A stretch of DNA of 64,000 nucleotides from GCF_054482595.1 NZ_CM137008.1; one strand, 5' to 3'; positions 46,104 to 64,000 are shown, counted from the stretch's first letter. A program made the numbers and translations. Notes: generated from the sequence alone by a model not told the origin.

Positions 46104-46136
46104 TGGCGAATTAATCAGCAGTCAGCAGCGCGGCAC

Positions 46137-46164: not shown

Positions 46165-46181
46165 GCCTTACGCATCTCGAA

Positions 46182-46255
46182 GCGGGCGTAGTTCAATGGT
46201 AGAACGAGAGCTTCCCAAGCTCTATACGAGGGTTCGATTCCCTTCGCCCGCTCCA
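46182..46255 (+). tRNA. glyU: tRNA-Gly (anticodon CCC)
   Basis: 74 nt: 7-bp acceptor stem GCGGGCG/CGCCCGC, anticodon loop CTTCCCAAG, T-loop GGTTCGATTCC, 3' CCA encoded. Confidence 0.95.
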
Positions 46256-46344
46256 AAACTTCCCTAACGTATTCATTCCACTATCTTTTTCTAAACTATA
46301 CGTGACGGCGCTCGTGATCCTCCTACAAAGGGGTCATACAGCCG

Positions 46345-48288
46345 ATGTCGCAGCGTGATAATCTCTATCGCCGTCCAAGTGGTATCTATGTTCTTCGGAT
46401 CACTGTTCCGGTTCGTTATCGCGCCCTTATAGGGCAGCGTGAAATTCATGCATCTACCCGCACAACCCACCTTGCAAATGCCAGAGCTATTGCCGCGTGT
46501 TTGCTGGAGAAGTGGTATGCGTCTCTGGAAGAGTTCAGGCAAGTGGATAAAGAGAAGATCAGGGGCAATGCCCCATTGTTGACTGGCGCTGGCAAAATCA
46601 GCCTGGCGTTGTTTTGCGATTCATTTGGGGTTGGGGTTGAGACTGTCGTCCAGCATCTTCTGGCAGACAATGTGCCGCTGTATGCCCTTGTGTCGAACCA
46701 GCGTGGCTTTTTGATTGATGATTTCAGCACTCTTGAGCGTGATCCTGATACGCATGGGTTCGTTTTGACTAATATTGCGTATGACGGTGCTGAGGCTGCG
46801 GTGAACGGCTATATGCAGCTTTACCAGCCTCAGTTTGCCCTTGTTGAATTGCTGAACGGGCGAGAGGTTGAGGTTACGGCATTCAGGGCTAACAACGGCA
46901 ACCCTCTTTCCCTCTGGTTGTTGGATTTACCCGGGGTGACGCTGAATGCAAGTTCTTTGTTCATCAACAACGTGCAGGCTGAAAAACTGCGTTACGTCTG
47001 GGATAGCGCGCTTGCAGCATCGGAACCGACATCAACCACCCCACCAAAAGCGCCGACAGCGGCGCTTCCTGCGGCCGCTACTATCAACCCGTATTGTAAT
47101 CCGATGCATGCAAGCATGACGGTTTCAGCAGTTCTGGAAGAGTTTCTGGCCTATAAAAATACGGGTGATATCAAGTTAGCCAGTGAGGGGAAAATTCGTT
47201 CCAGAATCGAGCACTTTACGGAGATTATGGGTGATATGTCCTTAGGTGAGCTGGATCGTGAGGTCGTGAAGGATTACGTCAGTAGAATGCAGAAAATGCC
47301 CGGCAATCTGTATTTGATGCGGCGGAAATACAAGATTTCCGACACGCGAATGTTGATCGAAAGGGCGCTGGCTGATGGTCAGCCGGTAATGAGCCGGGAT
47401 GCGATTGGCAGGCATATTGAGTCACTGGGTTCGATGTTCAAATGGGCCAAGAAGGTGCGTTACCTGCTTGATAATCCAGCCGAGAATGTGCTCGCTCAGC
47501 GCCGCGTGATGGTGCGTGAGCAGGATCGCCGAGATCTCTTCACCGAGGATGAACTATTGCGTATTTTCTCTGCTGACTGGTTCAAAACTGGTGCCGGAAC
47601 ACCTAACCAATACGGACGTTACACGAGCTTTCGCCCGTTTCACTACTGGTTGCCCCTACTGGCATTATATGTGGGCGGGCGCATCAATGAGCTTTGCCAG
47701 CTTTATCTGGCGGACATTCGCGTGGATAAAAACGGTGTTGCCTATATTGATTTTAATCTTGATGCACCGGATAAGATGATGGATGAAGAGGCACTAGCCG
47801 GTGGCGATAAATCCTTGAAAACGGTGAATGCTATCCGTCAGGTTCCCCTACATCCACGACTGATCGAACTAGGGCTACTTGAGTATGTGGATGCGTTGAA
47901 AGCTGCCGGGTATGATCGTCTTTTCCCTGAGTTGAAGCATAATAAAATCAAAGGATATCGTGCCGCCGCCTCAAAATGGTTTAACGAAAACTACTTTGGC
48001 AAAGTCCTCGGTTTTACCCGTGACGGTAAGAAAACGTTCCATTCGCTGCGGCATACTTTCATCAACGCTGTTGACAAGTATGAGACCAACGAACGCACGA
48101 TTGCGCAGCTTGTTGGACATGTCCGGGGCAGCACTACTGCGATGACAACCTATCGTAAGGATGCTGATGTGGGAGAGCAATTGGACGTGATTTCGCAGCT
48201 TTGCTACAACTTGCCTGATATTGCGCAATTCGACTCGCAAGCGGGTATCAAGGCGGTCAGTGACGCACGGCGCAGACATAAATCGTGA
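46345..48288 (+). CDS. Tyrosine site-specific integrase with a long N-terminal extension (647 aa)
   Basis: Starts 90 bp after glyU; C-terminal region carries HSLRHTF and GHVRGSTTAMTTYRKD (catalytic His-x-x-Arg and Tyr motifs). Confidence 0.85.
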   Translation: MSQRDNLYRRPSGIYVLRITVPVRYRALIGQREIHASTRTTHLANARAIAACLLEKWYASLEEFRQVDKEKIRGNAPLLTGAGKISLALFCDSFGVGVETVVQHLLADNVPLYALVSNQRGFLIDDFSTLERDPDTHGFVLTNIAYDGAEAAVNGYMQLYQPQFALVELLNGREVEVTAFRANNGNPLSLWLLDLPGVTLNASSLFINNVQAEKLRYVWDSALAASEPTSTTPPKAPTAALPAAATINPYCNPMHASMTVSAVLEEFLAYKNTGDIKLASEGKIRSRIEHFTEIMGDMSLGELDREVVKDYVSRMQKMPGNLYLMRRKYKISDTRMLIERALADGQPVMSRDAIGRHIESLGSMFKWAKKVRYLLDNPAENVLAQRRVMVREQDRRDLFTEDELLRIFSADWFKTGAGTPNQYGRYTSFRPFHYWLPLLALYVGGRINELCQLYLADIRVDKNGVAYIDFNLDAPDKMMDEEALAGGDKSLKTVNAIRQVPLHPRLIELGLLEYVDALKAAGYDRLFPELKHNKIKGYRAAASKWFNENYFGKVLGFTRDGKKTFHSLRHTFINAVDKYETNERTIAQLVGHVRGSTTAMTTYRKDADVGEQLDVISQLCYNLPDIAQFDSQAGIKAVSDARRRHKS

Positions 48289-48461
48289 GATGTGCCAAAC
48301 GCGCCAGGAAGCTCTATGGCGCGTTTTTTATCAAGGGTAGTGGAAATCATGGTGCGGAATTTGCGGCGCTTTCGTAGCTCGACTGGCGCAGCTAGATGAA
48401 TCAGATGTAACCTTCAACAAGCAGCCTCTTTCGCAATATTTAAACAACTAGCGGAGTATGG

Positions 48462-48677
48462 ATGTTAATGGCGACCTACAGACAAATTGCCGATGATGTT
48501 AAATCCCGAACGGGGAGAACAGTCAAAACATGTTGGATAGCGCATGTTAAGTCATTGCATGGGCTAACCCGCCGCGTATCTCCAAACCGCATTAGCACCG
48601 AAAGCCGTGTTTATCCTTGCCCTGATAAATGGGTTGCGGAGATCGAGCAATCAATGAGAAATCTGGGCGAGCTTTAG
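48462..48677 (+). CDS. Small DNA-binding protein, possibly AlpA/excisionase-like
   Basis: 71-aa ORF downstream of the integrase; C-terminal KWVAEIEQSM resembles the AlpA-family W-x-x-E-I motif; weak assignment. Confidence 0.35.
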   Translation: MLMATYRQIADDVKSRTGRTVKTCWIAHVKSLHGLTRRVSPNRISTESRVYPCPDKWVAEIEQSMRNLGEL

Positions 48678-49035
48678 CTCTTTACTGCGCCGCTTAACTT
48701 TTGAGTCTGTTTGGCTCTATAAGGACTGTCTCGCCGCCACGGAAATTTTCGGACGCAATGCCTGAGAGGGAGCTTCCAAACCTAGGACTTCCACTTTCCC
48801 GCACCCAACTTATCCGGCTGCTTTTAACCGCGAACACGTTGAAGGTTAACAACGTTTAGTTCATGTCTGACTGAAAGGAACGGCCACCGACAAACACCGT
48901 TAGAGAAGGTATGTAAGCTGATAGTTGAGTTGCTATATATACAGTTATTAAGAGAACTGCACCCAGACCAGCAGGAATGCAGCTTCTTTCCTGCTGATTG
49001 TCACTTTTTTCTGGAATAAGGGAACGAGCGGTAGT

Positions 49036-50052
49036 TCAAACGTGGAGACGACGTAAGGCGCCCTTGACGGCGTTTTGCAGATCGCTAACAACCGCCAGAT
49101 GAGAGCTTTCTTTCCGCAGACGCTTGTCACCGTTGACCATCATCCAGCTACGTTTATCCCTACGCCCGATGTTATTGAATGAATGCAAGCCGCGCTCGGC
49201 TGTTGCGTCGTTCACCCTACGAACTGCGTTGATAGCGGTAAACCTGAACATATCACCGTTAGCCATCATTTCAGGCTCGATTGGTTTGCGAAATTTGAAC
49301 AGGTGAGCGAGGGTTTCAAATCGAAAGTGTTGTATGTCGTTAAGGCGGTTAAGAGAGTAGTGAGTGAGCACAGCACCTTTTAACGTGACTTCAACACGAG
49401 CGCGTTGCTTTTCTACAGGTAGTTTCTGACCGTCGTCAGTGCATTTGTGGTAGACATGCCACGAGATCTTGTCCCACTTGTTACCCGTTCTCAGGTTCCA
49501 TTCAGGATTGATACGAACATCCTGAACATCAAGGAAAACATTTTGTCGAGTTACGGGATTGTATTGTCGGGCTTTGGTTCCCGGACTGAACAGGGAACTT
49601 TGAAGCCGATAGGTCATCGCATTTGTAGCGGTAATCGACCGGGCTTTGTGCCAGAAATCGCAGAAGACTTCGACCCCCACAATTTGCGGCTCGTAAGCAA
49701 ATGGGAAACGATTTTGTAATTGGTCGAGGGCGGCTTCCAACTTCCCGTTATGGTTTGCTAGTAGATCGCGAAAGCGAATCCGAAAAACGTTGTTAGTGTT
49801 GCTTATGATGGGCTTTACCCAAGGTTTGACGTAGTTACCGGGACGGTGTTCGCACGATGCCAATTTTGAGATACGTAGACCGCAGGGTTCAACCCAGAGT
49901 TTTAATCCGGTGATTTTAAGTAATTCTTCCTGAACATAGCGATGCTGGGTCAGTCTAGATAAGCTGATCGTTATGTCCAGCCAGTCGATCCCGGCTGAGA
50001 CTTTAAAGAATTTGCGGTCTGCTTCGGCAGCTTTGCATTCTCGACTCTTCAT
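49036..50052 (-). CDS. Hypothetical protein, possibly YagK/YfjJ-like (inovirus Gp2-type replication-associated)
   Basis: 338-aa ORF; N-terminal GIDWLDITIS motif and placement beside integrase/AlpA-like genes as in CP4-57-type elements; assignment from memory only. Confidence 0.4.
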   Translation of the reverse strand: MKSRECKAAEADRKFFKVSAGIDWLDITISLSRLTQHRYVQEELLKITGLKLWVEPCGLRISKLASCEHRPGNYVKPWVKPIISNTNNVFRIRFRDLLANHNGKLEAALDQLQNRFPFAYEPQIVGVEVFCDFWHKARSITATNAMTYRLQSSLFSPGTKARQYNPVTRQNVFLDVQDVRINPEWNLRTGNKWDKISWHVYHKCTDDGQKLPVEKQRARVEVTLKGAVLTHYSLNRLNDIQHFRFETLAHLFKFRKPIEPEMMANGDMFRFTAINAVRRVNDATAERGLHSFNNIGRRDKRSWMMVNGDKRLRKESSHLAVVSDLQNAVKGALRRLHV

Positions 50053-50173
50053 AGTGTGGCCTTATTGAACGGAATCTCAAACTGCCATCAGGGTAATTCG
50101 AACTGAGCAGGTTTGAGAGCATTCGAGCAAGGTAGCATAACAATTTTAAGATAAAAACCTTACTTATCAACTA

Positions 50174-50198
50174 ACTGCGTTCATATTCTGAACGCAGT
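50174..50198. promoter_or_regulatory. Perfect 10-bp inverted repeat (candidate operator) in divergent intergenic region
   Basis: actgcgttca-tattc-tgaacgcagt between the YfjJ-like gene and the serine recombinase gene. Confidence 0.4.
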
Positions 50199-50355
50199 AG
50201 TCGTTGTTAACTTAAAGGCATGAGAACACTGTCGTTTTTCATATACAAAGGGTGCTTCGGCTCACCTGTAGCGATTCAGAGAAAGCACATGGTGCTATCT
50301 GGTAAAGCCGTCAGCCAGCCTAATATGTCTTACCACTTTTGAGCGCCAACAAACG

Positions 50356-50457
50356 ACCGTTTTCTGGCACCTTTCGATCGCACACTTTCACACTGTTGGA
50401 AAATTAGCCTTGGCTTTTCTGGCAGGCCATCCTAAGTTGACACCGTTTTCTGGCAGG
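50356..50457 (+). repeat. Three direct repeats of TTTTCTGGCA upstream of the serine recombinase gene
   Basis: ccgttttctggcac (50358-50370), gcttttctggcagg (50413-50426), ccgttttctggcagg (50444-50457); 20-125 bp upstream of the recombinase start. Confidence 0.45.
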
Positions 50458-50477
50458 GGCCGGAAGAGGAGATGACT

Positions 50478-51041
50478 ATGGCGATTTTTGGCTACGGGCG
50501 CGTTTCGACATCGCAGCAGGATACTGAGAACCAGCGTTTGGAACTTGAGCAAGCTGGATGGACTTTCGACTTTTGGTTTACTGATGTTGTTAGCGGGAAG
50601 GTTCCTGCGCTGCAACGCAAAGCGTTTTCCGAAATGCTCAGCAAAATCCGCGATGGTGAAACGCTGGTTGTTGCCAAACTCGACCGACTGGGACGCGATG
50701 CGATTGATGTTCTCCAGACTGTCAGGGCGATGGCCGAGCGTAATATCAAGGTCATTGTCCACCAGCTTGGCACAACGGATCTCTCCTCTGCTGCCGGTAA
50801 ACTTCTGTTGTCGATGCTGTCAGCAGTTGCGGAGATGGAACGTGACCTACTGATTGAGAGGACCCATGCGGGTTTGTTGCGGGCAAAAGCTGAAGGCAAG
50901 AAGCTGGGAAGACCGTCGAAAATCGCCCCAGAAGTCCATAGGCTGATTATTGAGAAAAAGAATAATGGAGCCAGTGTCAGCGCACTAGCGAGGGAGTATG
51001 GCGTTTCCAGAGCGACTATAGCTGCACTATTAGATTATTAG
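50478..51041 (+). CDS. Serine recombinase (resolvase / DNA-invertase family)
   Basis: Supplied ORF 50472-51041; N-terminal GYGRVSTSQQ catalytic-Ser motif, KLDRLGRD, C-terminal HTH; second ATG at 50478 has better SD spacing. Confidence 0.88.
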   Translation: MAIFGYGRVSTSQQDTENQRLELEQAGWTFDFWFTDVVSGKVPALQRKAFSEMLSKIRDGETLVVAKLDRLGRDAIDVLQTVRAMAERNIKVIVHQLGTTDLSSAAGKLLLSMLSAVAEMERDLLIERTHAGLLRAKAEGKKLGRPSKIAPEVHRLIIEKKNNGASVSALAREYGVSRATIAALLDY

Positions 51042-51127
51042 CAATTTAGATTTTTATTACAACTTCTGAATGGCAAGAGTGCTAATCTTGGAGAGTAAAA
51101 GCCCCCAAATGGGGGCTAAGTTAATAA

Positions 51128-52903
51128 CTAATAATGGACGTTTGCGATGAATTGAGGGAGAAGTTCTTTAAAATCATCTCTATACATATCCATATCACTC
51201 TGGAAACGAGAGATTATTTCTGTAATTTCTTTGCTTTTGGATAATCTTCCTGCTGTAGCTGGTTCTAACAGTGCAGATCTTGTTAATACCCTTTTTATTA
51301 CAGGGATCCATAACTCCTTCGCATTTTCTCTATTGACGCCATCTTTGAAGGATAATGAATATTTATTAGGTATCGCTGAACCTAATATTATTTCCAATAT
51401 GCTTGCTATAGCATGAATCATTAACAGTGATACGCCAGGTTGGGTCAATAGCTTATGTTTAATAGTATCTATTTCAGGAAGCTGGTTATGCCTAAATTGT
51501 TCATTAAAATCCGATTTTATCTGGCTTATAGCTTCATTTAAAGAATAGACAAAGATAATATGACCTAGAGTAATTGTATCATCAAAAGCCTTTTTATAGA
51601 GATCCTCATCATCCCAAATATCTTTTTTTCGATGATATGCACTTGTAGGATGAGCATGAAAAGCGATCAGGATTTGTGCAACTGTATCCGTTGGTAATAA
51701 AATTCTTTTTTGAGCCGGAGTTAACACTTGGCGAAGGCCACCTGTATATAAAGCTTCCTTATTTTTCTCGAAATCCTTTCTTAATCTTTTTTGTATAGAA
51801 TCACTGGAGCGAAAATCTGAGCGCAAGACCTTGTTTTGTGAATTATTCGCTAGAGTGATTTCATTAATTAGTTCGGGATTATTAACTCTTATGAACCTAA
51901 TTGCAACTCTTAGCGTATCATCTGGATCTTTCCCTAAATTTGAAATACTACCAGTAGTTTGAGCACCATTGACAATAGAAATACCAGTAACACTTTTAAT
52001 TTGACCGAGTGTTTTGGATTCGTCAATGAAATCAATTTCAAAATCATGGACTAAGGCAGTGATTCCGTTATTAAATACAAAGAAATTTCCTGGGTGTGTT
52101 TTAGCCGTGTTTTGTATTTCATTATTTATTGAGAGGTCTTTTTTATTACTTCCTAAATAAGACCTTACATTAGCGCTGAATAGTTTATCTTCACCGTAGC
52201 TATTATATAGTTCTTTAATAAATTTCCCTGGCATAAGGGTAGAAAATGAGGCCCAGTTTTCATTAGAGTTTTGATAAAAGCCATGCATACCAGTCAGCGA
52301 TATTTTATCTGATATCAAAATTGGACTGTGTTGAGAGTTATATAATTCATCAAGTGAACTTAAACCCATTTGCTTGGAGCTTATTCTCAGGTTATCAATA
52401 TGATAAATTGAGTTTAATTTGTCCATAATTGAACGCCCAATCGAATGTAAAGGTTTCTCACATTCTGGTGTTTCAGGGCAGTTATGAACAAACCATACAT
52501 TTATTTTCTCAATTTCATTATTTCTTAAAGCATCTCTTGCATCTTTTACCTGATCCCTTATCCTCAGAGGTATATTCTCTATATCAGCGGAAAGCAACGC
52601 GGTTTCTGCATAAGCTGTTTCTTGGGCCTTAGACGGCTTGGCCCCTTGAGGTCGAAATATAGTAGATTGATAAGATTGTATAAGATATATTTGTTTGCTT
52701 TCTCTATCGGTCATTAATATGTCTATATTTTCATCATCTCCCCCTTCAGTTATTATGTCGGGAGCTATCAATTCAATGCTGTCTATATTGTTATGTAACT
52801 CTATTGCATATAATGCACAATTTAAATTACCATATTTTTCTAGATCTTTTCTCTGTTGCAATGCTGACCAGAAAGAACTATCTGAAAGCTGTGTATATGT
52901 CAT
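51128..52903 (-). CDS. Hypothetical 591-aa protein, candidate abortive-infection (AIPR-like) phage-defence protein
   Basis: Long uninterrupted ORF in a visibly AT-rich segment with A/T-rich codon usage unlike flanking core genes; no Walker A motif; family assignment by size/context only. Confidence 0.6.
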   Translation of the reverse strand: MTYTQLSDSSFWSALQQRKDLEKYGNLNCALYAIELHNNIDSIELIAPDIITEGGDDENIDILMTDRESKQIYLIQSYQSTIFRPQGAKPSKAQETAYAETALLSADIENIPLRIRDQVKDARDALRNNEIEKINVWFVHNCPETPECEKPLHSIGRSIMDKLNSIYHIDNLRISSKQMGLSSLDELYNSQHSPILISDKISLTGMHGFYQNSNENWASFSTLMPGKFIKELYNSYGEDKLFSANVRSYLGSNKKDLSINNEIQNTAKTHPGNFFVFNNGITALVHDFEIDFIDESKTLGQIKSVTGISIVNGAQTTGSISNLGKDPDDTLRVAIRFIRVNNPELINEITLANNSQNKVLRSDFRSSDSIQKRLRKDFEKNKEALYTGGLRQVLTPAQKRILLPTDTVAQILIAFHAHPTSAYHRKKDIWDDEDLYKKAFDDTITLGHIIFVYSLNEAISQIKSDFNEQFRHNQLPEIDTIKHKLLTQPGVSLLMIHAIASILEIILGSAIPNKYSLSFKDGVNRENAKELWIPVIKRVLTRSALLEPATAGRLSKSKEITEIISRFQSDMDMYRDDFKELLPQFIANVHY

Positions 52904-53053
52904 GATAAAACCCTTTTTATTAATATGTAAATTTTATCTCATTCTATCTAAAATCATTTTTTTATATCTAATGATATAACATTAAATGTATGTGAAATAT
53001 TTAATGGTATCTGCTATGCCTTTGTTTATTAAAGCACAGTCTTCAAATCAGGG

Positions 53054-53161
53054 TCAACCAAACCACAGTATATTATATCCAACTATTGGATGTCGGTAAG
53101 CGACTAAGGCTAGTTGAGGTAACACATAAATAATACAATACCTTAGGGTATTGAGTTTCAT
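53054..53161 (-). CDS. Possible small ORF (35 aa, hydrophobic) with strong Shine-Dalgarno
   Basis: Minus-strand GAAGGAGGGACAGG-ATG...TGA encoding [35 protein letters not shown]; lies between IS2 and the 591-aa gene; several rare codons, so may be non-coding. Confidence 0.2.
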
Positions 53162-53289
53162 CCTGTCCCTCCTTCTACGAACGTATCCACGCAGCGACTA
53201 GACTGGCCCCCTGAATCTCCAGACAACCAATATCACTTATTTAAGTGATAGTCTTAATACTAGTTTTTAGACTAGTCATTGGAGAGCAG

Positions 53290-53655
53290 ATGATTGATGT
53301 CTTAGGACCGGAGAAACGCAGACGGCGTACTACACAGGAAAAGATCGCTATTGTTCAGCAGAGTTTTGAACCGGGAATGACAGTCTCCCTTGTTGCCCGG
53401 CAACACGGTGTGGCAGCCAGCCAGTTATTTCTCTGGCGCAAGCAATACCAGGAGGGAAGTCTTACTGCTGTGGCCGCAGGAGAACAGGTCGTTCCTGCCT
53501 CTGAACTTGCTGCCGCCATGAAGCAGATTAAAGAACTCCAGCGCCTGCTCGGCAAAAAAACGATGGAAAATGAACTCCTTAAAGAAGCCGTTGAATACGG
53601 GCGTGCAAAAAAGTGGATAGCGCACGCGCCCTTATTGCCCGGGGATGGGGAGTAA
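53290..53655 (+). CDS. insC: IS2 transposase OrfA
   Basis: [41 protein letters not shown], matches remembered IS2 InsC. Confidence 0.95.
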
Positions 53656-54518
53656 GCTTAGTCAGCCGTTGTCTCCGGGTGTCGCGTGCGCAGTTGCACG
53701 TCATTCTCAGACGAACCGATGACTGGAAAGATGGTCGCCGCAGCCGTCACTCAGATGATACGGATGTGCTTCTCCGTATACACCATGTTATCGGAGAGCT
53801 GCCCACATATGGTTATCGTCGGGTATGGGCGCTGCTTCGCAGACAGGCCGAACTTGATGGTATGCCTGCGATCAATGCCAAACGTATTTACCGGATCATG
53901 CGCCAGAATGCGCTGTTGCTTGAGCGAAAACCCGCTGTACCGCCATCGAAACGGGCACATACCGGCAGAGTGGCTGTGAAAGAAAGTAATCAGCGATGGT
54001 GCTCTGACGGGTTCGAGTTCCGCTGTGATAACGGAGAAAAACTGCGAGTCACGTTCGCGCTGGACTGCTGTGACCGTGAGGCACTGCACTGGGCGGTCAC
54101 TACGGGCGGCTTCAACAGTGAAACAGTACAGGACGTCATGCTGGGAGCGGTGGAACGCCGTTTCGGCAACGAGCTTCCGGCGTCTCCAGTAGAGTGGCTG
54201 ACGGATAATGGTTCATGCTACCGGGCTAATGAAACACGGCAGTTTGCCCGGATGTTGGGGCTTGAACCGAAGAACACGGCGGTGCGGAGTCCGGAGAGTA
54301 ACGGCATAGCAGAGAGCTTCGTGAAAACGATAAAGCGTGACTACATCAGTGTCATGCCCAAACCAGACGGGTTAACGGCAGCAAAGAACCTTGCAGAGGC
54401 ATTCGAGCATTATAACGAATGGCATCCGCATAGTGCACTGGGTTATCGCTCGCCACGGGAATATCTACGGCAGCAAGCCAGTAATGGGTTAAGTGATAAC
54501 AGGTGTCTGGAAATATAG
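53613..54518 (+). CDS. insD: IS2 transposase OrfB (DDE integrase domain)
   Basis: 301-aa ORF overlapping insC in the -1 frame, matches remembered IS2 InsD. Confidence 0.95.
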
Positions 54519-54640
54519 GGGCAAATCCAGCGACTTCTTGAGCTTCGCCTGAAAAATTTGAAACCATGCGCTTGATGAGAATTGCATCTAGGTTACATTT
54601 GTGGGAACAGATCGTTGCTAGGGTAGCTATAAAATAAAAA

Positions 54641-55393: not shown

Positions 55394-55510
55394 GTTGTTA
55401 TCCTTCAGAATCCACCCCTGCGGTGATTTTAATCGCATGATAACGCTTTGATTCAAAATGTCACTATTGGAGCGTGGCTCTTTAGTGGACATCTAATCAA
55501 ATTCAGGAGG

Positions 55511-55975
55511 ATGAAAAAGACCCTTCGATTTTTATTTGGACAACGTGTTAAGGCTCTACGTATAGCCGCCGGAATGAGCCAGGAAGCGTTTGCTGATCGG
55601 TGTGGATTTGCGCGTAGCTATATGAGCCGCATTGAACGTGGTTGCTCTAACGCGTCTCTTGATGCGATTGAGGTATTGGCTGAAGCTTTAAGTGTTGAGC
55701 CTTGGCAATTGTTAGCGTCCGATTCTTCCGAAGATAGCGCCCCGGAATTGTTGGTTCCATACGCGGCCGATGGCTCGTGCTTTCATCCCGGACTAGCGAG
55801 CACGCGCGATGGTTCGTTTGGTGTAGGTGATAAAGCCGCTCAGAAGCGTTTTGGCTCGTTTTTAGAAGCATTAGAGTATCTACGTAACATGAAGACAGCA
55901 AAATGGCGCAGACCCAATTCTAGCGGCAACTGGGGTATCGTATCAGCGGTTCGTTGGGACAAGCTGAGAAAGTAG
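55511..55975 (+). CDS. HTH (XRE-family) transcriptional regulator with C-terminal domain of unknown function
   Basis: Supplied ORF 55448-55975; start at 55511 (AGGAGG + ATG); N-terminal LRIAAGMSQEAFADRCGFARSYMSRIERG helix-turn-helix; about 80-aa uncharacterised C-terminal extension. Confidence 0.75.
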   Translation: MKKTLRFLFGQRVKALRIAAGMSQEAFADRCGFARSYMSRIERGCSNASLDAIEVLAEALSVEPWQLLASDSSEDSAPELLVPYAADGSCFHPGLASTRDGSFGVGDKAAQKRFGSFLEALEYLRNMKTAKWRRPNSSGNWGIVSAVRWDKLRK

Positions 55976-56150
55976 CTCAGGTGTAAGTTTCAGATTTTAA
56001 ATTACTGAATAAATAAACAGCTACCACATGAGGTGAATGGCCGCACGTTTTATCTGGCACTGATAACTATCAGCATTCCTAAAACACCAAAATACGGGTG
56101 CGTTACGTAGGCGTTACAGTGGCGTTTCACTTCAGCAATGGAGAGTGCTT

Positions 56151-57023
56151 TTGAAAAATAATCATTTGATATCATATGGTTTCCTAACCTCGCTGAGTGA
56201 TATTGAATTACTGTCGCTTCACTCCGAAATTTTAACGCAGTTGCGTTTTAGAGGTGTCATTCGCACCAAGAATAATCCTGTTGGTGACTATGCTGAATGG
56301 CTGGTTTCTAATGCACTGGGTATGACTCTTCTCAGTAATTCGTCGGCGGGTGCTGATGCCATTGATGCTGATGGCCTGAAAGTGCAGATCAAAGCTAGGA
56401 GAGTTACGCCGGATAATCCTTCCCGGCAGCTTAGTGCCTTGCGTAACTATGAGGCAGCCGAATTTGATTATTTAATCGCGGTTATTTTCGATGAGACTTA
56501 CAACATTCTTGATGCTTACAAAATCCCACATGAAGTAATACGAGATTATGCACGGCATAGTGACCACGTTAACGCACATATCGTTAACCTCAAGGGCGCG
56601 ATTCTTACTGATCCCCGAGTTAGTTCCATCAAAGAAGACTTGATTGTCAGGAGTTCGGCTTCAGTCAATGAAGCGGCTATGCAAACCCTTCCACCCGAAC
56701 CTATGGAAGAGGTTTTGAATCAACCAGAGAAGATAACGAGTAGTGTTACCTTGGTCAGCCTCCTTAAGGCTATCGGGATGGAGTGCTTTGTAAACTACTA
56801 CCATCATTTTGCCGATTCAAATTTATCAAGCGCTGATATCATTGAGCAAATGCACTCACGTGAGGGTTACACAGAGAAAAGTTGCCGGGGCCGTCTCAGT
56901 AAAGCGCGAAAAGTGATCAGGGATGGTTTAAGTATTGAGGCTTTGACGTTGATCGCTGACTCTGGGCGAATACAAGATTCTGTCAGAAGTGACGCGCTAA
57001 AACTTATCAGCGTTCTGGAGTGA
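56151..57023 (+). CDS. Hypothetical protein with Mrr-like (PD-(D/E)xK) nuclease motif
   Basis: Supplied ORF 56145-57023 (GTG); TTG at 56151 has GGAGAG SD; residues about 47-87 GDYAEWLVSNALGMTLLSNSSAGADAIDADGLKVQIKARRV fit the Mrr-cat pattern (Asp cluster then Q-x-K); C-terminal about 150 aa unassigned. Confidence 0.6.
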   Translation: MKNNHLISYGFLTSLSDIELLSLHSEILTQLRFRGVIRTKNNPVGDYAEWLVSNALGMTLLSNSSAGADAIDADGLKVQIKARRVTPDNPSRQLSALRNYEAAEFDYLIAVIFDETYNILDAYKIPHEVIRDYARHSDHVNAHIVNLKGAILTDPRVSSIKEDLIVRSSASVNEAAMQTLPPEPMEEVLNQPEKITSSVTLVSLLKAIGMECFVNYYHHFADSNLSSADIIEQMHSREGYTEKSCRGRLSKARKVIRDGLSIEALTLIADSGRIQDSVRSDALKLISVLE

Positions 57024-57076
57024 AGCGGTTTGCAAAACGTTGTAGTTCCTCCTACAAAACCCTCCTACAATGCACC

Positions 57077-57539
57077 GGTAATGACTCCAACTTATTGATA
57101 GTGTTTTATGTTCAGATAATGCCCGATGACTTTGTCATGCAGCTCCACCGATTTTGAGAACGACAGCGACTTCCGTCCCAGCCGTGCCAGGTGCTGCCTC
57201 AGATTCAGGTTATGCCGCTCAATTCGCTGCGTATATCGCTTGCTGATTACGTGCAGCTTTCCCTTCAGGCGGGATTCATACAGCGGCCAGCCATCCGTCA
57301 TCCATATCACCACGTCAAAGGGTGACAGCAGGCTCATAAGACGCCCCAGCGTCGCCATAGTGCGTTCACCGAATACGTGCGCAACAACCGTCTTCCGGAG
57401 CCTGTCATACGCGTAAAACAGCCAGCGCTGGCGCGATTTAGCCCCGACGTATCCCCACTGTTCGTCCATTTCCGCGCAGACGATGACGTCACTGCCCGGC
57501 TGTATGCGCGAGGTTACCGACTGCGGCCTGAGTTTTTTA
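57077..57539 (-). mobile_element. IS1 remnant (about 463 bp, truncated by IS26)
   Basis: Begins with IS1 terminal repeat GGTAATGACTCCAACTTATTGATAGTG; encodes the C-terminal part of InsB (supplied ORF 57092-57586); IS1 sequence stops at the IS26 end. Confidence 0.9.
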
Positions 57540-58359
57540 GGCACTGTTGCAAAGTTAGCGATGAGGCAGCCTTTTGTCTTATTCAAAGGCCTTACATTTC
57601 AAAAACTCTGCTTACCAGGCGCATTTCGCCCAGGGGATCACCATAATAAAATGCTGAGGCCTGGCCTTTGCGTAGTGCACGCATCACCTCAATACCTTTG
57701 ATGGTGGCGTAAGCCGTCTTCATGGATTTAAATCCCAGCGTGGCGCCGATTATCCGTTTCAGTTTGCCATGATCGCATTCAATCACGTTGTTCCGGTACT
57801 TAATCTGTCGGTGTTCAACGTCAGACGGGCACCGGCCTTCGCGTTTGAGCAGAGCAAGCGCGCGACCATAGGCGGGCGCTTTATCCGTGTTGATGAATCG
57901 CGGGATCTGCCACTTCTTCACGTTGTTGAGGATTTTACCCAGAAACCGGTATGCAGCTTTGCTGTTACGACGGGAGGAGAGATAAAAATCGACAGTGCGG
58001 CCCCGGCTGTCGACGGCCCGGTACAGATACGCCCAGCGGCCATTGACCTTCACGTAGGTTTCATCCATGTGCCACGGGCAAAGATCGGAAGGGTTACGCC
58101 AGTACCAGCGCAGCCGTTTTTCCATTTCAGGCGCATAACGCTGAACCCAGCGGTAAATCGTGGAGTGATCGACATTCACTCCGCGTTCAGCCAGCATCTC
58201 CTGCAGCTCACGGTAACTGATGCCGTATTTGCAGTACCAGCGTACGGCCCACAGAATGATGTCACGCTGAAAATGCCGGCCTTTGAATGGGTTCATGTGC
58301 AGCTCCATCAGCAAAAGGGGATGATAAGTTTATCACCACCGACTATTTGCAACAGTGCC
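57540..58359 (-). mobile_element. IS26 (IS6 family), copy 1
   Basis: 820 bp bounded by GGCACTGTTGCAAA terminal inverted repeats (57540 and 58346-58359); carries tnp26. Confidence 0.95.
57592..58296 (-). CDS. tnpA: IS26 transposase Tnp26
   Basis: Supplied ORF 57592-58314; start [31 protein letters not shown] (234 aa). Confidence 0.95.
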
Positions 58360-58461
58360 TCCTTTTTGATAATCTCATGACCAAAATCCCTTAACGTGAG
58401 TTTTCGTTCCACTGAGCGTCAGACCCCGTATAGTGTTTTGCAGTTTAGAGGAGATATCGCG

Positions 58462-59322
58462 ATGCATACGCGGAAGGCAATAACGGAGGCGCTTCAAAAA
58501 CTCGGAGTCCAAACCGGTGACCTCTTGATGGTGCATGCCTCACTTAAAGCGATTGGTCCGGTCGAAGGAGGAGCGGAGACGGTCGTTGCCGCGTTACGCT
58601 CCGCGGTTGGGCCGACTGGCACTGTGATGGGATACGCGTCGTGGGACCGATCACCCTACGAGGAGACTCTGAATGGCGCTCGGCTGGATGACGAAGCCCG
58701 CCGTACCTGGCTGCCGTTCGATCCCGCAACAGCCGGGACTTACCGTGGGTTCGGCCTGCTGAATCAATTTCTGGTTCAAGCCCCCGGCGCGCGGCGCAGC
58801 GCGCACCCCGATGCATCGATGGTCGCGGTTGGTCCGCTGGCTGAAACGCTGACGGAGCCTCACGAACTCGGTCACGCCTTGGGGGAAGGATCGCCCGTCG
58901 AGCGGTTCGTTCGCCTTGGCGGGAAGGCCCTGCTGTTGGGTGCGCCGCTAAACTCCGTTACCGCATTGCACTACGCCGAGGCGGTTGCCGATATCCCCAA
59001 CAAACGGTGGGTGACGTATGAGATGCCGATGCTTGGAAGAGACGGTGAAGTCGCCTGGAAAACGGCATCGGATTACGATTCAAACGGCATTCTCGATTGC
59101 TTTGCTATCGAAGGAAAGCCGGATGCGGTTGAAACTATAGCAAATGCTTACGTGAAGCTCGGTCGCCATCGAGAAGGTGTCGTGGGCTTTGCTCAGTGCT
59201 ACCTGTTCGACGCGCAGGACATCGTGACGTTCGGCGTCACCTATCTTGAGAAGCATTTCGGAACCACTCCGATCGTGCCTCCGCACGAGGCCGTCGAGCG
59301 CTCTTGCGAGCCTTCAGGTTAG
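58462..59322 (+). CDS. aac(3)-II: Aminoglycoside N(3)-acetyltransferase, AAC(3)-II type (gentamicin/tobramycin resistance)
   Basis: Supplied ORF 58396-59322; from MHTRKAITEALQKLGVQTGDLLMVHASLKAIGPVEGG matches remembered AAC(3)-IIa/IId (286 aa); sub-variant not resolvable by eye. Confidence 0.9.
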   Translation: MHTRKAITEALQKLGVQTGDLLMVHASLKAIGPVEGGAETVVAALRSAVGPTGTVMGYASWDRSPYEETLNGARLDDEARRTWLPFDPATAGTYRGFGLLNQFLVQAPGARRSAHPDASMVAVGPLAETLTEPHELGHALGEGSPVERFVRLGGKALLLGAPLNSVTALHYAEAVADIPNKRWVTYEMPMLGRDGEVAWKTASDYDSNGILDCFAIEGKPDAVETIANAYVKLGRHREGVVGFAQCYLFDAQDIVTFGVTYLEKHFGTTPIVPPHEAVERSCEPSG

Positions 59323-59334
59323 AGGCCGTCGACA

Positions 59335-59547
59335 ATGATAATCTGGATCAACGGACCTTTCGGCGCCGGAAAGACGACGCTCGCTAAGCGGCTGCGCGAT
59401 CGGCGTTCCAAATCGCTGATCTTTGACCCCGAGGAAATCGGGTTCGTGGTGAAAGAAACGGTCCCCATGCCAGCGAGCGGAGACTATCAGGATCTCCCCT
59501 TGTGGAGGGGACTTACGATCGCGGCGGTCAGGGAGATTCGAAGGAAT
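59335..59547 (+). pseudogene. tmrB: Truncated tunicamycin-resistance gene tmrB (5' part only, cut by IS26)
   Basis: MIIWINGPFGAGKTTLAKRL P-loop N-terminus; reading frame runs into the IS26 terminal repeat at 59548. Confidence 0.8.
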
Positions 59548-60367
59548 GGCACTGTTGCAAATAGTCGGTGGTGATAAACTTATCATCCCCTTTTGCTGAT
59601 GGAGCTGCACATGAACCCATTCAAAGGCCGGCATTTTCAGCGTGACATCATTCTGTGGGCCGTACGCTGGTACTGCAAATACGGCATCAGTTACCGTGAG
59701 CTGCAGGAGATGCTGGCTGAACGCGGAGTGAATGTCGATCACTCCACGATTTACCGCTGGGTTCAGCGTTATGCGCCTGAAATGGAAAAACGGCTGCGCT
59801 GGTACTGGCGTAACCCTTCCGATCTTTGCCCGTGGCACATGGATGAAACCTACGTGAAGGTCAATGGCCGCTGGGCGTATCTGTACCGGGCCGTCGACAG
59901 CCGGGGCCGCACTGTCGATTTTTATCTCTCCTCCCGTCGTAACAGCAAAGCTGCATACCGGTTTCTGGGTAAAATCCTCAACAACGTGAAGAAGTGGCAG
60001 ATCCCGCGATTCATCAACACGGATAAAGCGCCCGCCTATGGTCGCGCGCTTGCTCTGCTCAAACGCGAAGGCCGGTGCCCGTCTGACGTTGAACACCGAC
60101 AGATTAAGTACCGGAACAACGTGATTGAATGCGATCATGGCAAACTGAAACGGATAATCGGCGCCACGCTGGGATTTAAATCCATGAAGACGGCTTACGC
60201 CACCATCAAAGGTATTGAGGTGATGCGTGCACTACGCAAAGGCCAGGCCTCAGCATTTTATTATGGTGATCCCCTGGGCGAAATGCGCCTGGTAAGCAGA
60301 GTTTTTGAAATGTAAGGCCTTTGAATAAGACAAAAGGCTGCCTCATCGCTAACTTTGCAACAGTGCC
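59548..60367 (+). mobile_element. IS26 (IS6 family), copy 2, inverted relative to copy 1
   Basis: 820 bp bounded by GGCACTGTTGCAAA repeats (59548 and 60354-60367); transposase protein identical to copy 1. Confidence 0.95.
59611..60315 (+). CDS. tnpA: IS26 transposase Tnp26
   Basis: Supplied ORF 59593-60315, same protein as 57592-58296 on the opposite strand. Confidence 0.95.
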   Translation: MNPFKGRHFQRDIILWAVRWYCKYGISYRELQEMLAERGVNVDHSTIYRWVQRYAPEMEKRLRWYWRNPSDLCPWHMDETYVKVNGRWAYLYRAVDSRGRTVDFYLSSRRNSKAAYRFLGKILNNVKKWQIPRFINTDKAPAYGRALALLKREGRCPSDVEHRQIKYRNNVIECDHGKLKRIIGATLGFKSMKTAYATIKGIEVMRALRKGQASAFYYGDPLGEMRLVSRVFEM

Positions 60368-60436
60368 GGATTGAATATAACCGACGTGACTGTTACATTT
60401 AGGTGGCTAAACCCGTCAAGCCCTCAGGAGTGAATC

Positions 60437-61342
60437 ATGACCGTAGTCACGACCGCCGATACCTCCCAACTGTACGCACTTGCAGCCCGACATGGGCTCA
60501 AGCTCCATGGCCCGCTGACTGTCAATGAGCTTGGGCTCGACTATAGGATCGTGATCGCCACCGTCGACGATGGACGTCGGTGGGTGCTGCGCATCCCGCG
60601 CCGAGCCGAGGTAAGCGCGAAGGTCGAACCAGAGGCGCGGGTGCTGGCAATGCTCAAGAATCGCCTGCCGTTCGCGGTGCCGGACTGGCGCGTGGCCAAC
60701 GCCGAGCTCGTTGCCTATCCCATGCTCGAAGACTCGACTGCGATGGTCATCCAGCCTGGTTCGTCCACGCCCGACTGGGTCGTGCCGCAGGACTCGGAGG
60801 TCTTCGCGGAGAGCTTCGCGACCGCGCTCGCCGCCCTGCATGCCGTCCCCATTTCCGCCGCCGTGGATGCGGGGATGCTCATCCGTACACCGACGCAGGC
60901 CCGTCAGAAGGTGGCCGACGACGTTGACCGCGTCCGACGCGAGTTCGTGGTGAACGACAAGCGCCTCCACCGGTGGCAGCGCTGGCTCGACGACGATTCG
61001 TCGTGGCCAGATTTCTCCGTGGTGGTGCATGGCGATCTCTACGTGGGCCATGTGCTCATCGACAACACGGAGCGCGTCAGCGGGATGATCGACTGGAGCG
61101 AGGCCCGCGTTGATGACCCTGCCATCGACATGGCCGCGCACCTTATGGTCTTTGGTGAAGAGGGGCTCGCGAAGCTCCTCCTCACGTATGAAGCGGCCGG
61201 TGGCCGGGTGTGGCCGCGGCTCGCCCACCACATCGCGGAGCGCCTTGCGTTCGGGGCGGTCACCTACGCACTCTTCGCCCTCGACTCGGGTAACGAAGAG
61301 TACCTCGCTGCGGCGAAGGCGCAGCTCGCCGCAGCGGAATGA
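60437..61342 (+). CDS. mph(A): Macrolide 2'-phosphotransferase Mph(A)
   Basis: 301-aa ORF MTVVTTADTSQLYALAARHGLKLHGPLTVNELGLDYRIV matches remembered Mph(A); high-GC segment. Confidence 0.93.
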   Translation: MTVVTTADTSQLYALAARHGLKLHGPLTVNELGLDYRIVIATVDDGRRWVLRIPRRAEVSAKVEPEARVLAMLKNRLPFAVPDWRVANAELVAYPMLEDSTAMVIQPGSSTPDWVVPQDSEVFAESFATALAALHAVPISAAVDAGMLIRTPTQARQKVADDVDRVRREFVVNDKRLHRWQRWLDDDSSWPDFSVVVHGDLYVGHVLIDNTERVSGMIDWSEARVDDPAIDMAAHLMVFGEEGLAKLLLTYEAAGGRVWPRLAHHIAERLAFGAVTYALFALDSGNEEYLAAAKAQLAAAE

Positions 61343-62577
61343 GCGAACGTCGATATAGCCCGCTCGCGACGCTGTTCGCGGCGACCTTTCTCTTCCGGAT
61401 CGGCAACGCGGTGGCGGCCCTCGCGCTTCCATGGTTCGTCCTGTCTCATACAAAGAGCGCGGCCTGGGCGGGCGCCACGGCCGCTAGCAGCGTCATCGCG
61501 ACCATCATCGGCGCGTGGGTTGGTGGTGGCCTCGTCGATCGGTTCGGGCGCGCGCCCGTCGCATTGATCTCGGGTGTGGTGGGCGGCGTGGCCATGGCGA
61601 GCATCCCACTGCTCGATGCCGTTGGCGCCCTCTCGAACACTGGGCTGATCGCTTGCGTGGTGCTCGGTGCCGCGTTCGACGCACCCGGTATGGCCGCGCA
61701 GGACAGTGAGCTGCCCAAACTCGGCCACGTCGCCGGGCTCTCCGTTGAGCGCGTCTCGTCACTGAAAGCGGTGATCGGGAACGTCGCGATTCTAGGTGGC
61801 CCGGCCCTTGGGGGGGCCGCAATCGGCCTGCTTGGCGCTGCGCCAACGCTCGGGCTGACGGCGTTCTGCTCCGTCCTTGCAGGTCTGCTCGGCGCGTGGG
61901 TGCTTCCCGCGCGTGCCGCTCGGACGATGACCACGACGGCGACTCTCTCCATGCGCGCCGGCGTCGCTTTTCTCTGGAGCGAACCCCTGCTGCGCCCTCT
62001 CTTTGGTATAGTGATGATCTTCGTGGGCATCGTTGGCGCCAACGGCAGCGTCATCATGCCTGCGCTGTTTGTAGATGCAGGACGCCAAGTAGCAGAGCTC
62101 GGGCTGTTCTCCTCAATGATGGGGGCTGGTGGTCTCCTTGGCATTGCCATTCATGCGTCGGTCGGCGCCCGGATATCAGCGCAGAACTGGCTGGCGGTGG
62201 CATTTTGTGGCTCTGCGGTGGGCTCGCTTCTGCTTTCACAGTTGCCAGGCGTGCCGGTGCTGATGTTGTTGGGCGCGCTCGTGGGACTGCTGACCGGCTC
62301 AGTCTCTCCCATTCTCAACGCTGCCATCTACAACCGCACGCCGCCAGAACTTCTCGGCCGGGTACTCGGCACGGTCTCGGCGGTGATGCTGTCAGCCTCG
62401 CCCATGGTTATGCTTGCGGCCGGCGCGTTTGTCGACCTTGCTGGTCCGCTCCCTGGCCTCGTTGTATCGGCCGTGTTTGCGGGGCTCGTGGCTCTACTCT
62501 CGCTCCGTCTTCAATTTGCTACAATGGCGGCGGCAGCCACAGCCTCCGCCCCAACCCATACAGAAGGTGAACACTGA
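61339..62577 (+). CDS. mrx(A): MFS-type hydrophobic protein Mrx(A)
   Basis: 412-aa polytopic membrane ORF overlapping the mph(A) stop by 4 nt, as in the mph(A) operon. Confidence 0.88.
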   Translation: MSERRYSPLATLFAATFLFRIGNAVAALALPWFVLSHTKSAAWAGATAASSVIATIIGAWVGGGLVDRFGRAPVALISGVVGGVAMASIPLLDAVGALSNTGLIACVVLGAAFDAPGMAAQDSELPKLGHVAGLSVERVSSLKAVIGNVAILGGPALGGAAIGLLGAAPTLGLTAFCSVLAGLLGAWVLPARAARTMTTTATLSMRAGVAFLWSEPLLRPLFGIVMIFVGIVGANGSVIMPALFVDAGRQVAELGLFSSMMGAGGLLGIAIHASVGARISAQNWLAVAFCGSAVGSLLLSQLPGVPVLMLLGALVGLLTGSVSPILNAAIYNRTPPELLGRVLGTVSAVMLSASPMVMLAAGAFVDLAGPLPGLVVSAVFAGLVALLSLRLQFATMAAAATASAPTHTEGEH

Positions 62578-63161
62578 TGCCCCGCCCCAAGCTCAAGTCC
62601 GATGACGAGGTACTCGAGGCCGCCACCGTAGTGCTGAAGCGTTGCGGTCCCATAGAGTTCACGCTCAGCGGAGTAGCAAAGGAGGTGGGGCTCTCCCGCG
62701 CAGCGTTAATCCAGCGCTTCACCAACCGCGATACGCTGCTGGTGAGGATGATGGAGCGCGGCGTCGAGCAGGTGCGGCATTACCTGAATGCGATACCGAT
62801 AGGCGCAGGGCCGCAAGGGCTCTGGGAATTTTTGCAGGTGCTCGTTCGGAGCATGAACACTCGCAACGACTTCTCGGTGAACTATCTCATCTCCTGGTAC
62901 GAGCTCCAGGTGCCGGAGCTACGCACGCTTGCGATCCAGCGGAACCGCGCGGTGGTGGAGGGGATCCGCAAGCGACTGCCCCCAGGTGCTCCTGCGGCAG
63001 CTGAGTTGCTCCTGCACTCGGTCATCGCTGGCGCGACGATGCAGTGGGCCGTCGATCCGGATGGTGAGCTAGCTGATCATGTGCTGGCTCAGATCGCTGC
63101 CATCCTGTGTTTAATGTTTCCCGAACACGACGATTTCCAACTCCTCCAGGCACATGCGTAA
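62577..63161 (+). CDS. mphR(A): TetR-family repressor MphR(A)
   Basis: 194-aa ORF with N-terminal TetR HTH (FTLSGVAKEVGLSRAALIQRFTNRDTLL); start overlaps the mrx stop. Confidence 0.9.
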   Translation: MPRPKLKSDDEVLEAATVVLKRCGPIEFTLSGVAKEVGLSRAALIQRFTNRDTLLVRMMERGVEQVRHYLNAIPIGAGPQGLWEFLQVLVRSMNTRNDFSVNYLISWYELQVPELRTLAIQRNRAVVEGIRKRLPPGAPAAAELLLHSVIAGATMQWAVDPDGELADHVLAQIAAILCLMFPEHDDFQLLQAHA

Positions 63162-63599
63162 ACGGAGGTGTGCAGAGTCCCTGCGGCAGGCGACGAACAC
63201 GACCGTCGTCGATTAGTACCGGTACGGTCGGTGGTATCGAAGTCTTGATCACCACTCAGGTCTACGGCTTACAAATGGTGACCATCCCGATACTTGCGTC
63301 AGAGCACCGGGCCGATTCTTTGACAGTGAATCACTCCCGTAAGGTTGTGCCGGTGTGGGTGTCCCGGGTCGAGACGATACTCCGCCAATGCGCCCAGCAA
63401 ACAACCTGGCCATCGCAGGTGGTGGGGAGCGGTGTGGCGGATGAGTTGGACAAGTTGGTGTAGCAGCACGAGCACGGCGAGATAACATCGCAGGAGTTCG
63501 ACATGCTCAAGAGACAGCTGATTGCGAATCGCGATGCAGATTCATAACCCGATTGCGGGTTGGCTTCACTCCACCATCACCGAGCAGACTAGCACGGCG

Positions 63600-64000
63600 G
63601 GCTCTGTTGCAAAGATTGGCGGCAGTCAGAGGTAGGCTGTCGCTCTGCGCCGATCAGGCGGCTGCTGCGAAATGGTGGTTGAGCATGCCCATGGCCTCCG
63701 TCAGCGCCGAGGGCCCAATGCCAAAAGCTCTCTCCACAAGGCGCACCTCGCCCCTGATGCCGGGCTGCAGGCACCAGGGGCGAGCCTGTCCTTTGCGCAG
63801 GGCTCGCATGACTTCGAATCCCTTGATCGTGGCATAGGCCGTGGGGATCGATTTGAAACCGCGCACCGGCTTGATCAGTATCTTGAGCTTTCCGTGATCG
63901 GCCTCGATCACGTTATTGAGATACTTCACCTGCCGGTGGGCCGTCTCCCGGTCCAGCTTTCCTTCGCGCTTCAATTCGGTGATCGCTGCACCATAGCTCG
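63600..64000 (-). mobile_element. IS6100 (IS6 family), partial; continues beyond window end
   Basis: Terminal repeat GGCTCTGTTGCAAAGATTGGCGGCAGTCAGAGG at 63600; minus-strand transposase ORF with stop at 63654 and still open at 64000 (IS6-family transposase C-terminus). Confidence 0.85.

Follow-up and report, generated by a model that had tools for sequence, protein, structure and literature searches.

Organisation of the glyU locus

The window analysed here is a 64-kb stretch of chromosomal DNA (64,000 nucleotides of NZ_CM137008.1) in which accessory DNA, the subject of this study, follows glyU, the gene for tRNA-Gly(CCC). ARAGORN and Rfam both identify this as the only tRNA gene in the window; its sequence is identical to that of Escherichia coli K-12, actS/ygeR and xdhABC lie upstream of it as they do in K-12, and an Rfam scan of positions 45900-64000 returned nothing beyond the tRNA. 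An earlier annotation made from the sequence alone (hereafter, the original prediction) proposed that conserved core genes end at ygeR and glyU, that a tyrosine integrase begins 90 bp past the tRNA and that mobility, candidate defence and resistance genes continue through the end of the window. Our gene calls match this description. The open reading frame (ORF) of the integrase starts at 46345, 90 bp past the last base of the tRNA, and its product has the corresponding Pfam domains and the catalytic residues R446, H566, R569, H592 and Y603. Downstream of it are mobility genes (a serine recombinase and the insertion sequences (IS) IS2, IS1, two copies of IS26 and IS6100), candidate defence genes (an AIPR-family protein and an Eco15I-type restriction enzyme) and resistance genes (aac(3)-IId and mph(A)-mrx(A)-mphR(A)), with a GC content that ranges from 32% to 68% along the accessory DNA up to 64000. 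The original prediction also took these 17.8 kb as one island, inserted in place of the ETT2 type III secretion cluster. Here our analysis departs from it, since the integrase-defined element measures only ~9.56 kb in intact relatives and the resistance part is a separate mosaic of plasmid type. We propose instead that three nested mobile layers are stacked at glyU, namely a defence island, an IS2 copy within it, and a resistance mosaic bounded by IS1 and IS26, a reading to which we assign a probability of roughly 0.85. The features are listed in Table 1.

Boundaries and distribution of the island

The attachment (att) core TTCCCTTCGCCCGCTCCAA occurs once in the 64 kb even when two mismatches are allowed (0 expected). 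In strain THO-010, which is 100% identical to the window over 32812-53199 and 54528-57076, exact copies of this core at positions 15239-15257 and 24796-24814 of the locus (L001) bound a segment of ~9.56 kb. Two copies flank the island also in ABWA45 and in an Enterobacter metagenome-assembled genome (MAG; locus L015); K-12 has a single copy and no island. Beyond the second copy (attR), the THO-010 sequence is that found past glyU in K-12, and ygeQ and the complete ETT2 cluster follow. About 11 genomes carry an identical island that ends at attR 54 bp beyond the equivalent of window position 57076, again with ETT2 intact after it. The island layer in the window comprises 46257-57076, or ~9.56 kb without IS2, and the 54 bp that are missing between 57076 and attR are AAGTTTTTGTTAATAAATCCATGGGATTACGAGATCTTTGGAGCGGGGGGTGAT. 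The original prediction had placed the distal repeat of the tRNA 3′ end out of sight, probably past 64000. It was right that the window holds no second glyU 3′ end; the repeat is found in THO-010 and related islands, but there the native attR maps 54 bp past the equivalent of 57076 and not past 64000.

The same relatives bear on the relationship to ETT2. A remnant of this cluster is indeed present directly after glyU in K-12, as the original prediction stated, and the ETT2 island, which is associated with glyU in enteroaggregative E. coli (EAEC) 042 and avian pathogenic E. coli (APEC) O78, occupies the same site beside tRNA-Gly(CCC) (PMC2808357, PMC4313913). The two elements nevertheless share no gene, and intact relatives have both, with the window-type island next to glyU and ETT2 beyond it. 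The island comes with an integrase and att repeats, but no integrase is annotated in the ETT2 stretches inspected (THO-010 and K-12). Type III secretion genes (eiv/epa/epr and ygeG-K) are absent from 46182-64000 and are located downstream of attR in THO-010. Because THO-010 has attR followed by ygeQ and the full ETT2 cluster, the island is, by comparison with this relative, a separate insertion between glyU and ETT2 and not a substitute for it.

Taken by itself, the window would also accommodate a single large accessory island that extends from glyU to beyond 64000 in place of ETT2, with the resistance genes as cargo and attR further downstream: it contains one copy of the tRNA 3′ end, its accessory genes are continuous up to the window end and ETT2 is not seen in it. 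We consider this very unlikely, and THO-010 largely refutes it. The identical islands of the ~11 genomes stop at attR 54 bp past 57076 with ETT2 behind them, an IS1 end borders the DNA from 57077 on, which agrees with plasmid sequences at ~100%, and relatives that have the same IS1 junction lack attR within 15-19 kb.

At an identity of at least 99%, the island is present in ~15 of 5426 complete E. coli genomes and its integrase in 15 only, and 3392 of the 5426, K-12 included, show an uninterrupted glyU-ygeQ junction, the empty site. The gene set is therefore absent at glyU from most E. coli, and the proposal of an accessory, strain-specific and integrase-borne insertion agrees both with these empty sites and with the att repeats of the relatives. 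Over 24 kb of flanking core DNA, the listed carriers show 100% identity with the window, and an identity of at least 99% is reached there by only 81 of the 5426 genomes. Because the carriers share a 100% identical 24-kb flank, the distribution points to one acquisition in one lineage, and the window, as judged by its sequence, is a member of the lineage of the carriers. Window positions 1-24000 (recJ, lysS, xdhD, ygfT, uacT and others) are 100% identical to XH990, THO-010, APEC37, W619 and YZMc3-1. We did not equate the window island with the 'GI-glyU' of sequence type 101 (ST101), which is 12.3 kb long with 38.7% GC and is given only as hypothetical proteins.

Table 1. Features of the glyU locus in the window, in order of position.
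Feature	Position	Strand	Remarks
glyU, tRNA-Gly(CCC)	46182..46255	+	integration target, attL made up of its 3′ end; ARAGORN; Rfam tRNA 71.6 bits
attL core, 19 bp, TTCCCTTCGCCCGCTCCAA	46238..46256	+	sole copy in window
Left arm of island	46257..46344	+	CCTCCTACAA at 46319-46328; arm conserved over 9 loci and genera
Tyrosine integrase, 647 aa	46345..48288	+	ATG start; Pfam PF00589 and N-terminal DUF6538 (PF20172); phrog_1 2.9e-35
int terminator hairpin and ~60 conserved bp ('A element')	48296..48400	+	single copy in window
Small basic ORF, 71 aa	48462..48677	+	phrog_27283 9e-19; 89-97% in L004, L005, L010, L011, L015
338-aa protein, rolling-circle Rep (Rep_trans/G2P-like) fold	49036..50052	-	
DUF1643 pseudogene remnant	50207..50305	-	RefSeq annotation of identical THO-010 sequence
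res-like region	50344..50455	+	26-bp imperfect palindrome 50344-50369 and two more TTTTCTGGCA half-sites, directly upstream of recombinase
Small serine recombinase (resolvase/invertase family), 189 aa	50472..51041	+	phrog_125 8.8e-58
AIPR-family protein, 591 aa	51128..52903	-	32-35% GC; Pfam AIPR PF10592 8.1e-34, residues 242-491
IS2, 1331 bp	53199..54529	+	5-bp duplication GCGAC at 53194-53198 and 54530-54534; upstream of AIPR gene
Hypothetical protein, 250 aa	54641..55393	-	N-terminal signal-like hydrophobic segment; 45-82% in L011, L013-L015
XRE-type helix-turn-helix (HTH) regulator, 154 aa	55511..55975	+	PADLOC Control_protein 3.4e-18, residues 24-90
Eco15I orthologue, 292 aa	56145..57023	+	annotated 'DUF6998'; PDB 8q5m E 2.2e-102; PADLOC mREase_II 5e-70
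Right arm, cut short	57024..57076	+	tandem CCTCCTACAA at 57048-57057 and 57061-57070; last 54 bp and attR missing
IS1 fragment, 463 bp	57077..57539	-	inverted repeat abuts island; cut by IS26
IS26 copy 1	57540..58359	-	
aac(3)-IId aminoglycoside acetyltransferase	58462..59322	+	NCBIfam AAC(3)-II 541 bits vs cut-off 480; RefSeq label of identical SM107 DNA
IS26 copy 2	59548..60367	+	in opposite orientation to copy 1
mph(A)-mrx(A)-mphR(A) macrolide resistance operon	60437..63161	+	NCBIfam Mph(A) 685 bits vs cut-off 550
IS6100 transposase gene, 3′ part	63654..64000	-	cut by window end; IS6-family match; collinear with IS6100 in SM107

Site specificity of the integrase

Related integrases in CD09, ABWA45 and NCTC122, with 68-91% amino acid identity (~72-91% at the DNA level), likewise begin 90 bp after glyU and are followed by other cargo, and further variants occur at similar chromosomal positions in CX21 and in the O111:H21 strain 15A, which brings the other E. 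coli lineages with homologues to five. A scan of one genome per species in other Enterobacterales yielded 13 loci (in Enterobacter, Citrobacter, Pluralibacter, Kosakonia, Yersinia, Tenebrionibacter and others). In 12 of these tRNA-Gly(CCC) ends 89-90 bp before the integrase, and the thirteenth has the core sequence in the same place. In ABWA45 and the Enterobacter MAG, a second copy of the core marks off related islands of 8.8 kb and 6.4 kb, respectively. The integrase homologues use tRNA-Gly(CCC) and not a different attachment site, and the island family is, on the evidence of these alignments, specific to this tRNA gene and spread across Enterobacterales. The left arm (90 bp) and ~110 bp of the right arm are also conserved across genera. 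The motif CCTCCTACAA found in both arms occurs three times in the 64 kb against an expectation of 0.04, each time ~62 bp from a core site, and its copies are probably arm-type sites of the integrase or operator sites.

IS2 and the resistance mosaic

The IS2 copy that separates the two blocks of identity with THO-010 is absent at this site from THO-010, SM107 and all 5426 complete genomes. The third layer, the mosaic of 57077-64000, begins 54 bp short of attR. The resistance region in the SM107 chromosome shows 100% identity with positions 57540-64000, and plasmids with resistance genes, for example pCTXM15_020026, match 57076-64000 at ~100% in several pieces; the mph(A)-mrx(A)-mphR(A) operon is 100% identical to its counterparts in SM107 and in plasmids such as pCTXM15_020026. 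The arrangement is that of IncF-type plasmid mosaics (IS26-aac(3)-IId-IS26 and IS26-mph(A)-mrx(A)-mphR(A)-IS6100), to which the window has ~100% identity, but here the copy is chromosomal and is joined to the island through IS1, 54 bp from attR. We read the resistance genes not as island cargo but as a separate, plasmid-type mosaic, bounded by IS1 and IS26, that has removed the right end of the island. The locus documents how a defence island in the chromosome came to receive aminoglycoside and macrolide resistance genes of plasmid type.

The same junction between island and IS1 is present in SM107 and in the O157:H16 strain Santai, neither of which has attR within 15-19 kb. Because these strains share the IS1 junction and lack attR, it is probable by analogy that attR has gone from the window island too and that this island is immobilised, or 'locked in'. 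Part of ETT2 is deleted in SM107, and SM107 and Santai carry further inversions mediated by IS1. In both (loci L002 and L007), a second IS1 copy lies within the AIPR gene, at the window equivalent of ~52474-52482, and the island segment between the IS1 copies is inverted. Because the AIPR gene is intact in the window, the state seen there would predate this inversion. The junction between the IS1 fragment and IS26 found no spanning match in the 5426 complete genomes, and among the matches listed of 65 high-coverage records all were in two pieces.

In the sequence of events that we propose, a tyrosine integrase would have recombined attP with the last 19 bp of tRNA-Gly(CCC), a reaction that would regenerate the tRNA and leave attL and attR as repeats, and the island would have landed between glyU and the older ETT2 cluster. 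Later, the spacer before the AIPR gene would have received IS2 by transposition, and IS1 would have inserted within the island, 54 bp from attR. Recombination with resistance plasmids, mediated by IS1 and IS26, would then have added aac(3)-IId together with mph(A)-mrx(A)-mphR(A)-IS6100. Arrival of the mosaic would have removed or displaced attR, with the result that the island is probably no longer excisable.

Several points weigh against the proposal of three nested layers. With attR absent from the window, the status of the DNA as an island here depends on its relatives, and its competence for excision is something that we infer. The exact arrangement of the window, with IS2 at 53199 and the junction between the IS1 fragment and IS26, occurs in none of the 5426 complete genomes. 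The ~15 carriers appear to belong to a single lineage, and any recent mobility within E. coli would be conjectural. As regards the cargo, Eco15I has been characterised in vitro only, and the AIPR protein is a candidate for a defence role.

A side observation concerns CD09, in which IS26 cuts short the related glyU island (L004 20383-25352) and chromosomal sequence picks up again at meaB/scpB, with an apparent deletion of ~60 kb that takes in ETT2; this is a further case of IS-mediated erosion at the glyU locus.

Defence cargo and its relatives on plasmids

The Eco15I-type ORF is near-identical over residues 10-181 to the N-terminal domain of Eco15I (8q5m) and also matches NhoI (8q5n; E 4.9e-21). 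Its length fits the two domains of Eco15I (BisI family; PDB 8Q5M, 8Q5O), and it shares with that enzyme the catalytic E, D and QxK residues: E51, D71, Q81 and K83 correspond, with an offset of +2, to E49, D69, Q79 and K81 of Eco15I (residues from PMC11347163). Eco15I of E. coli 541-15 is a BisI-family Type IIM enzyme that depends on 5-methylcytosine (5mC) and cuts G5mCNGC; its cleavage of GCNGC requires methylation or hydroxymethylation of three to four cytosines (PMC4926085, PMC11347163). Because enzymes of the Eco15I type cut GCNGC multiply modified with 5mC or 5-hydroxymethylcytosine (5hmC), the orthologue in the window should target phages with modified cytosines.

The restriction gene is paired with an XRE regulator that resembles the controller (C) proteins of restriction-modification (R-M) systems but carries an extra C-terminal half. 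PMC4926085 records an XRE regulator and IS1 as neighbours of Eco15I too. Among related chromosomal loci, only a few have an Eco15I-type gene beside the XRE regulator; in PLSDB, the pair is kept together on 78 plasmids. After the HTH-Eco15I pair, one of these plasmids, pMRE162 (L008 5812-7481), still has the right arm of the island with the attR core, then 19 bp that come from the adjoining E. coli chromosome, and finally IS1. Because pMRE162 retains the attR core and 19 bp of chromosomal flank before IS1, we regard its sequence as direct evidence that IS1 lifted the end of the island from a chromosomal glyU island onto plasmids. Eco15I is thereby given a home in the genome, namely an integrative island specific to glyU, from which IS1 would have captured the right end onto at least 78 plasmids. 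As far as the available text goes, the papers on Eco15I (PMC4926085, PMC11347163) treat the enzyme and do not describe either this home or the capture.

The AIPR protein matches AbiU in PADLOC (1.7e-29) and phrog_1841 (6e-93) and is a candidate single-gene abortive-infection defence; its gene is absent from the minimal island of L015. Assignment to MzaE of the MZA system was rejected: the NCBIfam match scores 55.6 bits against a cut-off of 1050, covers a partial region, and the partners MzaA-D are not adjacent. At their variable positions, related islands hold PDC-S06, Shedu SduA, a type II R-M pair and Vat-type acetyltransferases. Because the variable positions are occupied by such genes, the family is, to judge from its gene content, mainly a carrier of defence genes, with cargo that is interchangeable and mostly anti-phage.

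In these respects the island resembles the tRNA-integrated defence islands of Hochhauser et al. 2023 (PMC10121019), which are likewise borne by an integrase, inserted in a tRNA gene and equipped with anti-phage genes. Among the island sites in a supplement of that study is 'ygeR-yqe, tRNA_Gly_CCC', for which PD-T7-4 is recorded in strain PPECC42; by locus name, this is the only entry of the kind there. The site is flagged as falling outside the numbered hotspots, the system recorded differs from those of the window, and the main text does not describe the island family, its att site or its backbone. Literature searches on DUF6998, on DUF6538 and on tRNA-Gly with ETT2 and an integrase found nothing, and the family, its att site and its modular backbone appear to be undescribed in the searchable literature. 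None of the layers is of a new kind, RefSeq genomes already contain this very island, though without a name, and the finding leaves current concepts unchanged. What it adds is a defined att site and backbone for a family that carries Shedu, R-M, PDC-S06 and Eco15I genes in different genera, which can be used for the mining of defence islands and for the annotation of 'DUF6998' and 'DUF6538' genes.

Backbone of the island family

From comparison of the related islands, the backbone of the family is taken to consist of the integrase, the 71-aa ORF, the resolvase with a res-like site, the 250-aa putatively secreted protein and the XRE regulator. Each of 11 loci has one full 26-bp site of the form (T/C)GCCAACAAACG-AC-CGTTTTC(T/C)GGCA, and homology between islands starts exactly at its outer edge. 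Because homology breaks at this edge, the 26-bp site and the recombinase suggest a res/resolvase module of the Tn3 type at which cargo is exchanged. The module resembles that of Tn3/gamma-delta in its ~110 bp with one 26-bp dyad and half-sites before the recombinase gene, and in flanks that are swapped at the edge; the island differs in having neither a Tn3-family transposase nor terminal repeats, and the subsite architecture in the window is read from the sequence. The serine recombinase matches NCBIfam serine-recombinase models with scores under their cut-offs, invertase models being the best. An inversion switch driven by a Hin/Gin-type invertase was nevertheless rejected, as there is one full site per island and neither a second inverted site nor suitable inverted repeats. 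Further copies of the 26-bp site lie at L015 9102-9127, L005 26040-26065, L012 12904-12929 and elsewhere, and left-half and right-half variants are seen in all four combinations.

The conserved 'A element' after the integrase gene is present in two to three copies in related islands, where the copies bracket variable cargo genes. They are located at 7954-8050, 11328-11393 and 11883-12000 in L010 and at 7945-8006, 9808-9926 and 12140-12230 in L012, and repeats of the element also occur in L005, L011, L013, L014 and L016. A reading of the element as a small RNA was dropped, since its consensus fold is the terminator hairpin only and covariation is negligible.

Fold searches with the 338-aa protein matched initiators of the RepD type, with the invariant tyrosine; the protein has no match to Rep_trans PF02486 or any other Pfam family even at E<=10, and a profile search against PDB sequences gave nothing relevant. 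It is a candidate nickase or replication initiator that, on its predicted fold, may nick or replicate an excised circle. The protein family to which it belongs, of ~300-340 aa and without a Pfam domain, is widespread in Enterobacterales, Pseudomonas and Burkholderia. Genes of this Rep-fold family are linked to a DUF1643 gene, a remnant in the window but intact on plasmid pFLI21_1, where the Rep-like gene, the DUF1643 gene and the resolvase lie between IS1 copies (L023 5129-7520).

These features raise the possibility of an integrative mobilizable element, in which the Rep_trans-fold protein would act as relaxase or rolling-circle initiator on the excised circle and the resolvase and its res site would exchange cargo with plasmids. 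The fold match with its invariant tyrosine, the position of the res-like site exactly at the break in homology, and the occurrence of both the 338-aa protein-DUF1643-resolvase and the HTH-Eco15I-attR modules on plasmids, in segments bounded by IS1, are all consistent with it. Capture by IS1 suffices, however, to account for the plasmid copies, as the 19 bp of chromosomal flank came along; neither the minimal island nor most members of the family have the Rep-like gene, and there is no oriT, no coupling protein and no Rep_trans match at the sequence level. On balance we hold such an element to be unlikely, though not negligibly so.

Matches to phage protein families lead to another alternative, a decayed prophage or phage satellite of the phage-inducible chromosomal island (PICI) or P4 kind rather than an autonomous integrative island. 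Six of the eight proteins scanned match PHROG families (integrase, DNA invertase, Abi and, at 5.7e-191, phrog_24787), and P4-like satellites with defence genes are common in E. coli tRNA genes (PMC10121019). None of the ORFs, however, has a capsid, terminase, primase, AlpA, Psu/Delta or cos-like function, the islands measure 6.4-9.6 kb, they have their backbone in common with plasmids rather than phages, and the integrase is a 647-aa protein of the DUF6538 type. We rejected this alternative, for which the chances seem slight indeed, because a phage structural or replication module is absent among the ORFs.

Going beyond the nested layers themselves, one might envisage an undescribed modular family, specific to tRNA-Gly(CCC) and distributed over Enterobacterales, that does not take up defence cargo randomly but swaps it at res-like sites and 'A elements' and of which some members use a nickase with a Rep_trans fold for replication of the circle or for mobilisation. 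We offer this as a speculation of low probability; if true, it would describe a compact platform for the exchange of immunity cassettes that also trades modules with plasmids.

Among the smaller products, the 250-aa protein has no match in Pfam, PADLOC or NCBIfam. For the 338-aa, 250-aa and 71-aa proteins together, Pfam, NCBIfam, PADLOC and PDB sequence searches were empty and only the fold search was informative. The 71-aa ORF, small and basic, might possibly encode a directionality factor or regulator.

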